Shown piece by piece: positions 1 through 7,651 of a DNA stretch of 9,032 nt. The stretch comes from a virus (lineage: Monodnaviria > Loebvirae > Hofneiviricota > Faserviricetes > Tubulavirales > Inoviridae): IMG/VR virus record IMGVR_UViG_2529293040_000001; one strand, 5' to 3'. Under the pieces are notes generated by a model. The model ran no database searches. It was given only the letters and a program-made list of their open reading frames with translations, and was not told the DNA's origin. Both the position numbers and the translations under genes were made by a program. Position 1 is the first letter of the stretch. Every line of letters starts with the position of its first letter.

Positions 1-1260
1 TCATTTGCCAACCCTGCGAGCCTGAAGCACCACAATTATATCCGTCCGGTTATTCTCATCTGATTTGCCTGTAAAACCCGGCAAAAATGAAAAACCTGTC
101 CGCGACTGCGTCAGCTTACTGCTGGCAAGGCCACCAAGCACAAGTAATTCACCGTCCTTAACATCAACCTTTGTGCTGATTTCCCGCTTCGTCAGTGTCG
201 GGCTGGAGTTAACGCCTGTCGTTGTCTTTACAAAATCGCTCAGTTGCTGGCTGATATCCAGTGTTATCAGTCCGTCAAGCACAACCGGCGTTACTGTAAA
301 AATCGCCCCGCTGTTCCTGTATGTCACAGACTGGACTGGCGTTCCGCTGCTGCCCTGATAGCTGACACTGTCCAGCACCGGAACTTCCTGACCCACAGTA
401 AACTGCGACTTACTGCCGGAAAGCACCGTAAGACGCGGATTACTCACGACATTAAAGCGTGAATCCTCTTTGATCAGACTGTAAAACGCATTCAGCCCTC
501 CAACATTCAGCGTAAACGAATTACCCCCATCAAGACGAGCCCCCACAGACATCCCCAGTTTATTACGGAACAAATCAGCAATAATTTGCAGTCCGGTTGC
601 ATTGCGGTCTGTCGTCTGGACTTCAAGAACATAGCCGCTCACCGTTACCTGCTCTGCCGGAACGTCAATACGCGGCAGTATTTTTTCTATCTGCCGGACG
701 GATGCTGCCGGACCGGAATAAACCAGCACTTCGGCATCCGTTGCGATCGACATACGCGTCGATGCACTGTCTGTCGTGGTTATACCTGACACACCGCCAG
801 ACAAATAATCGACGGACTGAATATGATTACTGAAAGCCCCGGAAGAAACCACAGAGTTAAGCATTGCCGATAAATAACTCACGCTGCGGTATTTAGGGCG
901 ATAAGTAAAAACCACATCAGGCACTTTCTGCTCAGTCTGCTTTATCACTGAAATGTAATCCACGCCATCCTTCATCGACGTGACGCTGATATTCAGGCGT
1001 TTAAGGTATGAAATAAAAAAGCTTCGCGGCTCCTGATTTTTACTCAGATAGAAACTGACAAGTCTTGTGTCTCCTGCAATATCCGGCGACAACTGATAAG
1101 GGCGATTAAAAACCCGTTGCCAGACCATGCTGATAACCTGAGGTAAAGGCGCATTGTCCATTGACATCTCCACACGTCGTGCCTCACTTTCTGAAACGGC
1201 ATAAGCCGGAGAAAAAAATGATAAAAGCACAAATGAAAAGAATACGGTGATCAGTTTCAT
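1..1260 (-). CDS. Filamentous-phage pIV-like outer-membrane secretin (export channel)
   Basis: 419-aa ORF with an N-terminal signal peptide ([21 protein letters not shown]) and a C-terminal region that reads like a secretin domain ([28 protein letters not shown]...IIVVLQA). It is the last gene of the morphogenesis block, after pI, as in Ff phage. A GGGGG Shine-Dalgarno lies 6 nt before the ATG at 1260. The stop codon is at 1-3, so the gene is complete. Confidence 0.85.
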
Positions 1261-1438
1261 TTTTGCCCCCTGAAAGAAACCGGATTATTACAGGACCATG
1301 CAACAACCTTCACGCCGTCCACCTCTCCCTCAAGCATAATATTCAGCCCCCTGAATTTATTTGCGGAAACCATACGAAGGCGATTATCCGTATCGCGCAG
1401 AAAAACATAGTTCCGGTCCCCGTCATTAAAACGCCCTA

Positions 1439-2313
1439 TTACGCACCACTTTTGAGAAGGCGCAGGAGCGGTTTTATTCTCCGGTGAAGGCGAAACATTA
1501 ACCGACGGCGAAGACGGCGAAGAACGTAACGGCGCTGACTGCTGTGCCTGTTCTGTTTTTTCTGCGGATTAAAAAAAGGCAAAAGAAAACTAAAGAAGAG
1601 ATAAACAGAAAGCAATATAAGAAAAATAAACAAAAGAATAACCTGCGGTTTAAACAAAACCGCCCTTGCGTCAGTTCTTGTTTCCACCGCTCCCTTAACA
1701 TCATGAGAGCTGTAAAGCGGGTAAATATCTTTACTGTAACGGCAGACATAATTTGAAAGATGCGTTGCCTTTGTGGTTCTGGAACCGTCGAAAACATCAA
1801 CGCGATAACTTTTATGAGAAAGACCAATCAGTTTTTTCATTCTGAAAGTCTGCTCAATACGCTCACGAAGAAAGCGAGGCAACGTTGTCAATGCCTGATT
1901 AATAAGAACAAGGTCGCAGGTTTGCCCCGTTTTTTCATCAGCATAATGGCGATGCTCGGCAGCAAAGATACGGGCATCAGATGACAAAGCTTTATCTGAT
2001 GTAAAAAACGATGACACTCATCGAGAATAATTAAATCACCTGGCTGGCAGAGTGATTTATCCTGATTTCCCTTAACCGGATAAAAATCAGAGGACATAAC
2101 CCGCTCATTTTCAACATGAATGATTTCACCTGATGAAATATCATCACTTATCAGTTTGTTTTTATAACAATACTGAATGATTGCCTCATGATTCAGTCCG
2201 TATATATTTGAGACAATCCTTCGGCCGGATGCAACAGCCGGAATAATAACAGACTTAACCACTTCATAAGATTTGCCAGAACCCGGCACGCCAATATATG
2301 CAGTAATAGCCAT
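1439..2313 (-). pseudogene. pI/Zot-like assembly ATPase, interrupted by a frameshift (N-terminal fragment 1888-2313, C-terminal fragment 1439-2017)
   Basis: The N-terminal ORF carries Walker A ([12 protein letters not shown]) and Walker B (LIILDECH). A second ORF in another frame continues with pI-like sequence ([10 protein letters not shown]...CDLVLINQ), then a hydrophobic membrane segment (LLFIFLILLSVYLFFSFLLPFF) and a basic tail. The frame change maps to the A6 run at 2003-2008. One extra A would give a continuous reading DECHRFFTSDK. An AGAGGG Shine-Dalgarno precedes the ATG at 2313. Confidence 0.75.
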
Positions 2314-2324
2314 AAATCACCCTC

Positions 2325-2612
2325 TTAATTAAAGAATGGAATACGGCGTATAAAGAAACGCGTAAACATGGCTGAAACCATCATGGGCAAAACAACATCA
2401 AAAGACATCAGATTAAGAAACCACAAAACAGAAGAAGGCAACTCTGAAAAAAGCGAGGAAATACTGCTACCATCAGGAAGATGAGTCACAATCAACGGAA
2501 GAACTTCTACAACCATAATATAAATTGCAGAGAACATTACAAACTTAATGAGTGCAGTACGAAAAATAAAACCAAGAGCAGTATTTATTGCAGCAATAAA
2601 AATGGCAAACAT
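2325..2612 (-). CDS. pVI-like minor coat / virion end protein (hydrophobic)
   Basis: 95-aa strongly hydrophobic ORF lying between pIII and pI, which is the gVI position in Ff-type genomes. An AGGTGG Shine-Dalgarno lies 7 nt before the ATG, and the pIII stop codon sits within that ribosome-binding region. Confidence 0.55.
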
Positions 2613-2629
2613 AATTCACCACCTGATTA

Positions 2630-7136: not shown

Positions 7137-7151
7137 GTTTCCGTTGACTCT

Positions 7152-7179
7152 ACCCCCGTGTTACAAGACGGGGGTTTAT
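7152..7179 (+). terminator. Stem-loop after the regulator gene (possible terminator)
   Basis: Perfect 8-bp stem ACCCCCGT / ACGGGGGT with an 8-nt loop, 16 nt after the stop codon, followed by TTTAT. The T tract is short, so efficiency is uncertain. Confidence 0.35.
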
Positions 7180-7407
7180 CCCTGCCCAAACACGCCAAGA
7201 ATCATCATCATCGTGATTATCGTCCGTCGTCACGGCAGGCGCTCCCGTCCTCGACCCTGCGGGCGGGTGCGGCTGGCGTTCCTCCGTCCTCCTCCCCTTA
7301 TCTTCTTCATCGGCGTGCTGGCGTCTCGGATACGAAAATACGATTTAAAAAATAGCTAAAGGAATGTAGAGTCCCGACAGGATTAACAACATCAGCTCAG
7401 AAAAACC

Positions 7408-7548
7408 ATGCACGACATGATTCTGGATTTACTAATGAAATACCTGATTGCCGGTAGTCTGTTCGGCATGTTTTTGTTCAGCGTCATAACAATAGTGTTG
7501 CCAATCGTCCTGAGGGCACACAATAAAATCAACAGAAGCAACGACTGA
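7408..7548 (+). CDS. Hypothetical 46-aa single-pass membrane peptide
   Basis: ATG-initiated ORF MHDMILDLLMKYLIAGSLFGMFLFSVITIVLPIVLRAHNKINRSND with a roughly 22-residue hydrophobic core and a charged tail. It ends 10 nt before the dif-like hairpin. There is no clear Shine-Dalgarno, so it may not be coding. Confidence 0.3.
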   Translation: MHDMILDLLMKYLIAGSLFGMFLFSVITIVLPIVLRAHNKINRSND

Positions 7549-7557
7549 ATACACAAC

Positions 7558-7651
7558 AGTGCGCACAATGGCGTTATGTATAAAAAGGCCGCTGCGGTGG
7601 AAAGTATCGCAGCGGCCTTTTCAACATAACGCGTGTCACATTATGCGCACC
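7558..7651. other. dif-like XerC/XerD site pair in inverted orientation around a hairpin (candidate attP-derived prophage/chromosome junction)
   Basis: Minus strand 7651-7619 reads GGTGCGCATAA-TGTGACACGCG-TTATGTTGAAAA. The first 14 nt equal E. coli dif (GGTGCGCATAATGT). Plus strand 7558-7584 reads AGTGCGCACAA-TGGCG-TTATGTATAAA. Between them is a perfect 10-bp stem GGCCGCTGCG / CGCAGCGGCC (7587-7617) with an 11-nt loop. Confidence 0.6.

Follow-up and report, generated by a model that had tools for sequence, protein, structure and literature searches.

Which kind of element occupies the DNA beside hipA in a diarrhoeagenic Escherichia coli, how did it come to lie there, and does it still work? 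These questions are raised by a stretch of 9,032 nucleotides that is filed as an inovirus in IMG/VR (IMGVR_UViG_2529293040_000001; the whole stretch is called the window hereafter) and that is an exact substring of contig AIFA01000047.1 of assembly GCA_000249155.2, a draft from 2012 belonging to the DECA diarrhoeagenic E. coli collection. Positions 1-7640 of the window very probably represent most of a 7.9-kb temperate filamentous phage (inovirus), integrated at the E. coli dif site as an integrative mobile element exploiting Xer (IMEX) of the CTXphi type. The prophage is a rare and nameless lineage of a well-known kind, namely a CTX-type, dif-integrated inovirus with its own secretin. Its length is 7,910 bp, of which the window holds 7,640 bp (~97%). 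An earlier note, made by reading the letters of the DNA, had called the prophage near-complete, and this was apt since the window begins at the pIV stop codon and only the last 259 bp of the phage and a regenerated dif-like site lie outside of it. What the present analysis adds to that note are the exact junctions, a conserved attachment site (attP) that folds as a hairpin of single-stranded DNA (ssDNA), the affinity to RstR and RstA, the prediction of an OB fold, the mosaicism and spread of the phage, and a set of frameshifts that are probably artefacts.

Gene content and order

The map of open reading frames (ORFs) shows the minus-strand genes in an unbroken array from 1 to ~6720, which is followed by one divergent ORF on the plus strand (6852-7136) and by a large ORF on the minus strand (7731-9032), the last being host hipA. 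Profile searches of the HMMER/Pfam type, the check that the earlier note had proposed, assigned every large ORF of the array to families of inovirus morphogenesis or replication, and all the modules that it had listed were recovered on the minus strand and in the order it had given. Starting from the divergent RstR-like repressor, this order is a 65-aa ORF, an RstA-type Rep, an OB-fold protein, a small hydrophobic protein, the major coat protein, a 56-aa ORF, a pIII-like protein, a pVI-like protein, pI/Zot, and the pIV secretin. By position, the genes are as follows (profile matches with their E values in brackets).

1-1260, minus strand: pIV-type secretin, 419 aa (PF00263 Secretin, 1.9e-25; PF03958, 1.1e-6; phrog_1012 "assembly (protein IV of M13)", 1.8e-116, full length)
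1257-2313, minus strand: pI/Zot assembly ATPase (PF05707 above the gathering score on both fragments; phrog_197)
2325-2612, minus strand: pVI-like minor coat protein, DUF2523, 95 aa (PF10734, 2.9e-9; phrog_974 "minor head protein", 4e-19)
2630-4242, minus strand: pIII-like adsorption protein (signal peptide, unique N-terminal region, Gly-Thr/Ser linker, C-terminal membrane anchor)
4247-4417, minus strand: ORF of 56 aa that separates the genes of coat and pIII (WP_000107046.1 in the annotation of relatives; weak hint of a helix-turn-helix-like protein only)
4552-4800, minus strand: major coat protein, 82-aa precursor (phrog_2186 "virion structural protein", 4e-14; phrog_6548 "major coat protein", 1e-3)
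4803-4975, minus strand: small hydrophobic protein, 57 aa in relatives and 44 aa in the window (ORF at 4822-4995 of the copy in strain E700025, locus L002)
4980-5315, minus strand: 111-aa protein at the gene V/rstB position (predicted OB fold)
5325-6521, minus strand: rolling-circle replication initiator, Rep_trans, RstA-type, 398 aa from the annotated start (PF02486, 1.9e-21; phrog_453, 4e-107)
6521-6718, minus strand: 65-aa acidic ORF (phrog_3104, 8e-25; annotated in relatives including E24377A and MS20655)
6855-7136, plus strand: RstR-like repressor, 70 aa in relatives, where it ends at ~7066 (phrog_2503, 1.5e-27)

The element thus combines what is expected of an inovirus: a pI/Zot-family ATPase, a small major coat protein, and a rolling-circle initiator are encoded in a compact rolling-circle genome (inoviruses having 5-12 kb), and the structural and replication genes all lie on the minus strand. 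The intact pI/Zot of relatives has 352 aa and matches PF05707 with 80.7 bits and phrog_197 with 2e-76. The major coat precursor carries, as read from its sequence, a signal peptide ending in SFA, an acidic N-terminus, one transmembrane helix, and a basic C-terminus; its match to Pfam Phage_Coat_B remained below threshold (0.0087). The small hydrophobic protein gave no significant family match in the Pfam and PHROG profile searches, and its position and hydrophobicity make it a candidate pVII/pIX-type minor coat protein. For the 56-aa ORF, the matches were all sub-threshold (PF14493, 0.026; phrog_31815, 0.034). The claim that the phage, unlike CTXphi, carries its own secretin was borne out by the pIV gene at the left end of the window, whose product would serve as the phage's own outer-membrane export channel.

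Two of the modules named in the earlier note, the ssDNA-binding protein and pIII, are in place as genes, while their labels derive from position and a predicted OB fold in the one case and from position and architecture in the other, rather than from sequence families. The pIII-like ORF as read in the window encodes 534 aa (2630-4234), with an ATG at 4240-4242 that is out of frame. Its C-terminal ~150 aa match phrog_7187 (2e-23) and also phrog_3942, both being PHROGs of unknown function, and the C-terminal domain shows 28% identity over 123 aa with the same-position protein of the E. coli inovirus MS20655. Neither Pfam nor NCBIfam returned a match for the protein, PDB matches were confined to the low-complexity linker, and no similarity was found between its N-terminal domain and the receptor-binding proteins of VAI2 and E24377A. 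That it is an adsorption protein can be soundly inferred, as distinct from demonstrated homology, from its position between coat and pVI, its signal peptide, the linker repeat, and the shared anchor. The 111-aa protein had no match in Pfam, NCBIfam, or PDB, and an exhaustive HMMER scan retrieved 6 relatives only, together with which it forms a small family of its own. BLASTP revealed no similarity to pre-CTX RstB or to the RstB-like protein of VAI2, i.e., no RstB homologue was detected downstream of rep. Gene position and the modeled OB fold make the 111-aa protein a candidate ssDNA-binding protein.

The replication and regulation genes resemble those of the CTXphi family. Rep is 33% identical to RstA of CTXphi/pre-CTX (E 2e-60), and the RstR-like protein shows 68% amino acid identity over 56 residues to RstR of the Vibrio phage pre-CTX (E 1e-26), the RstR homologue being encoded divergently from the RstA homologue as in an RS2-type module. 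The 65-aa ORF shares one base with the Rep start (translationally coupled) and is kept in sister phages.

Junctions at dif and the folded attachment site

How the phage entered the chromosome can be read from its right end, where the window contains three adjoining features.

7558-7640, minus strand: phage part of the attachment region, comprising site B (7558-7585), a G+C-rich distal stem-loop (7583-7621), and the central region and XerD-like arm of site A (7619-7640)
7641-7651, minus strand: host XerC-binding arm of dif, GGTGCGCATAA, at the right prophage junction
7731-9032, minus strand: host hipA, codons 8-440, not phage (TIGR03071 HipA N-terminal domain; annotated as hipA in all relatives)

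The XerC arm is an exact match that occurs once in the window, and the phage DNA is joined to it at the XerC cleavage position, i.e., the boundary between XerC arm and central region (7641/7640). A full 28-bp dif, exact or with up to 3 mismatches, was not found in the window, which holds the XerC half-site only. Over 7652-8400, the host flank shows 100% identity to that of the enteropathogenic E. coli (EPEC) O127:H6 strain E2348/69, which is free of the prophage and in which an intact dif, GGTGCGCATAATGTATATTATGTTAAAG, runs directly into the sequence starting at window position 7652. At the other end, 259 bp past the pIV stop codon in the source contig, lies a regenerated dif-like site, AGTGCGCATAATGTATATTATGTTAAAT, which is composed of a phage-derived XerC arm (A for G at the outermost position), the host central region, and the XerD arm. 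The same left junction is present in a relative. These junctions place the insertion at dif beside hipA at base resolution, as had been proposed with a right boundary accurate to 11 nt. An effect on chromosome dimer resolution, which the note had mentioned for prophages at dif, is not expected here because a dif with a single outermost mismatch is regenerated at the far end. No integrase or recombinase of the phage itself was found among the ORFs of the element by the ORF list and profile searches.

Two dif-like sites in inverted orientation make up the attachment region. Site A reads GGTGCGCATAA-TGTGACACGCG-TTATGTTGAAA on the minus strand (7621-7651), site B reads AGTGCGCACAA-TGGCG-TTATGTATAAA on the plus strand (7558-7585), and the two are separated by a perfect 14-bp G+C-rich stem-loop. 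When the packaged strand of 7558-7651 was folded as ssDNA, a free energy of -38.1 kcal/mol was obtained, compared with -14.8 +/- 2.3 for shuffled sequences (z = -10.06; 0 of 200 shuffles as stable). In the hairpin, the XerC arm forms a duplex of 12 bp (one pair being T-G), which is joined by a bulge of 6 nt on one side to a stem with the XerD-like arm, and TGT follows directly after the XerC arm in attP as in dif. In strain E700025, the junction between tandem copies has an unrecombined attP with the phage's own A-starting arm. A hairpin of the same forked form occurs in the E24377A and MS20655 prophages, a Scandinavium metagenome-assembled genome, a Motilimonas contig, and an 8.4-kb contig that resembles a replicative form. 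Among these relatives, the sequence and length of the bulge vary and one G-C pair is replaced by a compensatory A-T pair, and the DNA around the hairpin can no longer be aligned. When inverted GTGCGCA pairs were sought in a strict scan, hairpins were recovered in only 3 of 55 Rep-bearing loci (L012, L016, and L042); in most Vibrio relatives, attP is probably of another type or the dif variant differs.

The mechanism of integration is assigned to the CTX type because two inverted dif-like sites form a folded attP. CTX-type IMEX are defined by two such sites forming a folded attP(+), and the class includes Ypfphi and CUS-1phi (PMC4246890), which have also been assigned to the CTX type elsewhere (PMC4266046). 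The hairpin of the plus strand, its retention in diverged relatives, the lack of a recombinase, the junctions at the XerC cleavage position of dif, and the regeneration of dif at one end all agree with this class.

According to the mechanism that we propose, the two inverted dif-like sites of the packaged plus strand (which is the window's minus strand) would anneal to a forked hairpin in which the XerC arm and the XerD-like arm are duplex and the central region is bulged. One strand pair would then be swapped by host XerC between this hairpin and the chromosomal dif, and replication would fix the product. On the hipA side, the outcome would be the host XerC arm followed by phage DNA (7641-7651/7640), and on the far side a phage XerC arm with host central region and XerD arm, i.e., a usable dif. 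Both junctions are the products expected of an XerC-catalysed single strand exchange followed by replication. Integration is proposed to be irreversible because the hairpin is absent from duplex DNA, and progeny would be made via RstA-type rolling-circle replication across tandem copies. The ssDNA substrate, the catalysis by XerC only, the irreversibility, and the formation of progeny over tandems are adopted here by analogy with the CTX type. Expression would be governed by the RstR-like repressor acting on palindromic operators between the divergent genes, and pI would assemble the virions, which would leave the cell via pIV, the secretin of the phage itself. Tandem arrays with a unit of 7,932 bp do occur in relatives, and the sequence CATTATGCGCACTGTTATCAGG would mark the junction of tandem copies or of a circular replicative form.

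Homopolymer frameshifts and alternative explanations

Whether the phage is intact depends on how a series of frameshifts is read. When the phage part of the window was compared with two independent relatives, six indels were found, all of them 1-nt deletions in A/T homopolymers. Those at 1556 (T7 to T6) and 2003 (A7 to A6) divide pI into three reading frames, the one at 4233 detaches the ATG of pIII, the one at 4851 cuts the 57-aa hydrophobic pVII/pIX-like ORF to 44 aa, the one at 7050 (A8 to A7) lengthens the repressor ORF to 7136, and the one at 6804 is intergenic. Shortening affected both A8 runs, 3 of the 8 runs of seven bases, and 1 of the 12 runs of six; no run was lengthened. Substitutions relative to the E700025 copy amount to 19 over the 7.6-kb phage, of which 7 lie outside pIII. 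An independent Logan assembly (L011, SRR067926) equals window positions 1-3030 except for a T7 at 1556, and it retains the deletion at 2003; at least one homopolymer call is hence assembly-dependent. The earlier note had been right that the modules and the small regulator are present, while it did not mention that pI/Zot lies in three frames and that frameshifts also affect the start of pIII, the regulator, and the small hydrophobic ORF, nor did it mention the hairpin attachment site, by which the mechanism of integration is defined.

The explanation towards which we lean, with some reserve, is that the six frameshifts are sequencing artefacts of the 2012 draft and that the phage is functional. 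All of them are -1 events in runs of at least six bases and their frequency rises with run length, which gives them the signature of under-calling, and the DECA genomes were presumably obtained with pyrosequencing-era chemistry. It is unlikely, although to be taken seriously, that the same element is instead a defective, decaying prophage with genuine deletions, which would be incapable of virion assembly or self-regulation and would persist as a cryptic remnant or in a helper-dependent state. The six frameshifts set the window apart from every relative compared, the lesion at 2003 is reproduced in a second assembly, the source assembly holds a single copy, and slippage in A/T runs is the commonest natural frameshift mechanism. 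Decay would, however, have to account for the restriction of all six deletions to -1 events in runs of at least six with a frequency that grows with run length, for the fact that an intact relative differs outside pIII by as few as 7 substitutions over 7.6 kb, and for the disappearance of the 1556 deletion in another assembly; the deletion at 6804 is non-coding, where selection for inactivation explains nothing, and the origin of the sequence from a 2012 DECA draft also points to artefacts. If not the integrity but the route of integration is questioned, it is highly improbable that the phage integrated in the manner of VGJphi, by which a double-stranded replicative form would recombine with dif via the single site A and the inverted site and hairpin would be incidental, e.g., a transcription terminator. 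The junction products are identical to those of an XerC-first reaction on double-stranded DNA, and the distal part of the hairpin does resemble a terminator. As a duplex, however, site A spaces its two arms (XerC and XerD-like) by 11 nt and not by 6-7 nt, which makes it a poor Xer substrate, and at a spacing of 6 or 7 nt the XerD arm matches dif at 5/11 or 2/11 positions. Moreover, the inverted second site is kept in position and pairing in phages with flanks diverged beyond alignment, and two inverted sites constitute the CTX type by definition (PMC4246890).

That the locus is no phage at all, being either a chromosomal secretin/ATPase secretion cluster or a plasmid-derived rolling-circle module near dif, has virtually no chance of being correct. 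All of the RefSeq copies inspected call pIV "type II secretion system protein GspD" and most other genes hypothetical, which would fit such a locus. The secretin reaches 126 bits against a GspD equivalog cut-off of 351 bits, yet it matches the M13 pIV PHROG end to end; because it falls so far under the equivalog cut-off, "GspD" is a family-level name and no argument against a phage. A full inovirus gene set in canonical order, exact 7.9-kb tandem units in relatives, the rarity of the element (13-37 of 5,426 genomes), and the site found empty elsewhere in the species are likewise at odds with a chromosomal secretion cluster or plasmid module. Several points nevertheless weigh against a functional phage of the CTX type. 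The deletion at 2003 in pI, being also present in the Logan assembly, may be a real lesion, and the prophage would then be assembly-defective. The source assembly contains a single prophage copy, from which a CTX-type phage would yield no progeny, although tandem copies may have been collapsed in the draft. The identity of pIII is one of architecture only. Finally, on its own strand site A has a central region of 11 nt, a substrate that E. coli XerCD may not accept, and ssDNA integration, a circular replicative form, and virions are predictions for the present phage.

Distribution and mosaicism

At least 80% of the window was found in 13 of 5,426 complete E. coli genomes, all 13 of which are human-derived. 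The carriers include O166:H15 strains and isolates from Japan, the Netherlands, and Pakistan. Searched separately, the morphogenesis module (1-4980) is present in 28 genomes (megablast) and the replication/immunity module (4981-7136) in 37 genomes (sensitive blastn), 6 of them in the 60-80% band. In the enterotoxigenic E. coli strain E24377A, the replication/regulation module (window 4981-7177) is retained with 95% nucleotide identity next to unrelated structural genes. As judged from such alignments, modules are exchanged between sister phages.

The phage is 99.75% identical between the B2-type host and strain E700025, and the adjacent hipA flank is 95.2% identical. Because the identity of the phage lies far above that of the flank, the phage has been transferred horizontally in recent time, and this contrast between phylogroups lends no more than indirect support to the putative production of filamentous ssDNA virions.

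A close relative was not found in the deposited phage collection, to which nucleotide similarity is limited to ~70% identity over a 172-nt rstR-like stretch, shared with rstR of CTXphi, pre-CTX, and VAI phages. The best deposited match of Rep is RstA (33%), and that of pI is found in human-gut metagenomic inoviruses (39%). Among the other enterobacterial Rep proteins recovered, the best outside E. coli are 45-48% identical to the Rep of the window. A GTDB-wide scan with the Rep profile returned no Yersinia pestis or E. coli locus, a result that is due to its two peptide patterns and to the sampling of one genome per species. No name for the present phage was found in the literature searched for E24377A, for RstR together with E. 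coli, and for secretin together with dif.

The repressor at 6855-7066 is 68% identical to that of pre-CTX KR063268.1 (2430-2690 of locus L005), and the adjacent Rep is 33% identical to RstA. An RstR immunity protein so similar in Vibrio and E. coli phages whose Reps are just 33% identical hints, from sequence comparison, at an exchange of immunity genes between the inoviruses of these hosts.

Two deposited sequences deserve mention here. The 7,439-bp "plasmid" NZ_CP195780.1 of E. coli A37 encodes an inovirus secretin ~85% identical to that of the MS20655 phage and is probably the replicative form of a related filamentous phage deposited as a plasmid. Contig NZ_JAXCEI010000036.1 (L012; 8,359 bp), from an Actinomadura assembly, encodes a Rep 55% identical to that of the window and carries an intact forked attP hairpin of the E. 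coli type (GGTGCGCATAATGTATGACG...). This contig most likely stems from an enterobacterium, as a contaminant or as a replicative form, rather than from an actinomycete phage.

Taken alone, the present prophage is of little weight, as filamentous prophages at dif, including those of E. coli, and CTX-type hairpin sites have already been well described. It does represent a third, nameless E. coli lineage of dif-integrating inoviruses besides CUS-1/Ypfphi and UPphi, and within pathogenic E. coli it exemplifies the shuffling of modules as well as recent transfer. Since it has a secretin of its own and an attP that is compact and folds cleanly, it offers a convenient E. coli model of ssDNA Xer integration, a process that has been studied almost only in Vibrio. 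For annotation, it calls for caution, as pIV is called "GspD" and homopolymer errors can make an intact phage seem degraded.

A wider reading can be put forward tentatively, and as a whole we consider it doubtful. According to this reading, the phage would belong to an undescribed genus-level CTX-type lineage that spreads between diarrhoeagenic E. coli phylogroups (EPEC-like B2, O166:H15, astA-type). Such a lineage may exchange whole modules with sister phages such as the E24377A prophage, may share its repressor with Vibrio pre-CTX, and may reach its receptor via a novel N-terminal domain of pIII. The more speculative part is that phage production could be turned on and off by genuine slip-strand switching at the A7/A8 tracts in pI, pIII, the repressor, and a minor coat gene.

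Comparison with named phages

The prototype of the CTX-type IMEX is CTXphi/pre-CTXphi of Vibrio cholerae (Affertcholeramvirus). Like this phage, the present one has a divergent rstR-like gene, an RstA-type Rep, and a small protein at the rstB position; it lacks an integrase, is integrated at dif, and has an attP hairpin forked from inverted sites, and its relatives form tandem arrays. Unlike CTXphi, which uses the host's EpsD, it has its own pIV secretin; it is without ctxAB, its host is E. coli, its protein at the rstB position is unrelated in sequence, and its structural genes have no detectable DNA similarity to those of CTXphi. The hairpin measures ~94 nt from XerC arm to XerC arm, compared with ~150 nt for CTXphi (PMC4246890).

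Ypfphi of Y. pestis and CUS-1phi of E. coli O18:K1:H7 are also dif-integrated enterobacterial inoviruses with inverted XerC/XerD sites and an RstR homologue. With the present phage, they have in common tandem repeats, the regeneration of dif at one end, variable accessory ORFs beside the attachment site, and the overall gene order. Ypfphi differs in its length of 8.7 kb and in its accessory ORFs (PMC4266046). CUS-1 and Ypfphi are 99% identical to each other over 7.1 kb. Kinship of the present phage with this pair was compared indirectly: its replication module was found in 37 and its structural module in 28 E. coli genomes, and no Yersinia phage was matched. The comparison with CUS-1 and Ypfphi drawn in the earlier note therefore stands for integration class and gene order, and no evidence of a close sequence relationship was found. 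The sparse and weak blastn matches argue indirectly against such a relationship, and the data on puvA and the virulence of Ypfphi would not be transferable. Likewise, the link to virulence and biofilm traits that the note had raised is background on the class, applicable to the present phage by analogy only. Whether the MS20655-type phage is CUS-1 was also considered; this was rejected, as it occurs in only 10 genomes and is not widespread in K1 strains.

The UPphi901 group (Lineavirus-like, from E. coli and other Enterobacterales) is likewise dif-integrating and forms tandem repeats. UPphi shows ~70% protein identity to IKe/I2-2, and its genes II and V are >85% identical to those of Ypfphi. 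Membership of the present phage in UPphi/Lineavirus was rejected, as neither blastn nor tblastn with pI gave a match to IKe/I2-2. Closer counterparts are the E24377A prophage, which has the same attP hairpin and replication module and differs in its unrelated structural and assembly genes, and the tandem prophage of the bloodstream isolate MS20655, which is alike in gene order, the C-terminal domain of pIII, the DUF2523 protein, and the hairpin and differs in a Rep region of 65% DNA identity and in extra accessory genes. At the level of sequence, both comparisons show a shuffling of modules within one clade.

Regulatory region, repeats, and accessory DNA

Four further features of the phage part of the window are listed here.

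3001-3202, minus strand: tandem repeat with a unit of 18 nt, 11.2 copies, from which the pIII linker (GTGS/GTGT)n is translated (TRF score 292)
6738-6794, no strand: divergent promoter/operator region, with the inverted repeat TACCGCATGCG/CGCATGCGCTA and direct CGCATGCGC repeats around the promoter
7152-7175, plus strand: G+C-rich hairpin just 3' of the regulator gene (inverted repeat; identical in the diverged E24377A phage)
7408-7548, plus strand: unannotated ORF of a 46-aa single-pass membrane peptide, in a variable accessory slot beside attP

The best sigma-70-like promoter of the window, TTTACA-18-TATGAT (10/12 matches), lies at 6781-6752 on the minus strand and is directed at rep. The palindromic repeats containing CGCATGCGC are candidate operators, by analogy with RstR and PrstA. 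Of the 7 substitutions outside pIII that separate the window from strain E700025, 2 fall at 6771 and 6773, within this putative promoter/operator.

The number of copies of the 18-nt repeat differs among relatives, as 18-nt indels were found relative to the loci L001 and L002. Another repeat, an imperfect 25-nt tandem repeat (2.4 copies, 77% matches), lies within pI at 1580-1640, where a transmembrane and linker segment is encoded.

Downstream of the regulator gene, a 40-nt block (7137-7177) is invariant in the alignment with E24377A, after which the DNA diverges. The hairpin at 7152-7175 may be a terminator and/or an element of the plus-strand origin. The non-coding region 7137-7560 (424 nt), folded as ssDNA, showed no excess of structure (z = -0.66), and no minus-strand origin or packaging hairpin is claimed for it. 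A scan of the window for tRNA genes found none, and an Rfam scan gave a single chance-level match (E 0.99). The 46-aa ORF had no family match in the Pfam and PHROG profile searches; it is 30% identical (E 1e-8) to an annotated 57-aa ORF at the same position of the E24377A prophage, where the DNA is strongly diverged, and this comparison suggests that it is a real accessory gene.

The G+C-rich, non-coding segment 7199-7458 has a counterpart of 88% identity in unannotated parts of several E. coli plasmids (~90-170 kb). Some match to it is present in 97 genomes, and in one plasmid that was inspected it adjoins an IS3 copy near sodC.

The surroundings of dif also carry other elements. On the opposite side of dif, the source strain (L010, 12684-18194) has a separate island with a tyrosine integrase and large unannotated ORFs, and in strain E2348/69 (L007, 1-2472) a gene with a reverse-transcriptase domain is found there together with an AAA ATPase and fragments of an integrase; several elements seem to share dif as a hotspot. 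In several relatives, e.g., L003 (NZ_CP086623.1, 10793-13475), the right end of the phage is separated from hipA by a fragment of an ISNCY transposase and a gene of the SIR2 family (12016-13368), and half of an attP-like hairpin, GGTTCGCATAATGACGTTATGCTAAAGAGGCC, is found at 13371, beyond the SIR2-family gene. This region, which is absent from the window, looks like the remnant of another dif-integrating element with a defence-type gene.

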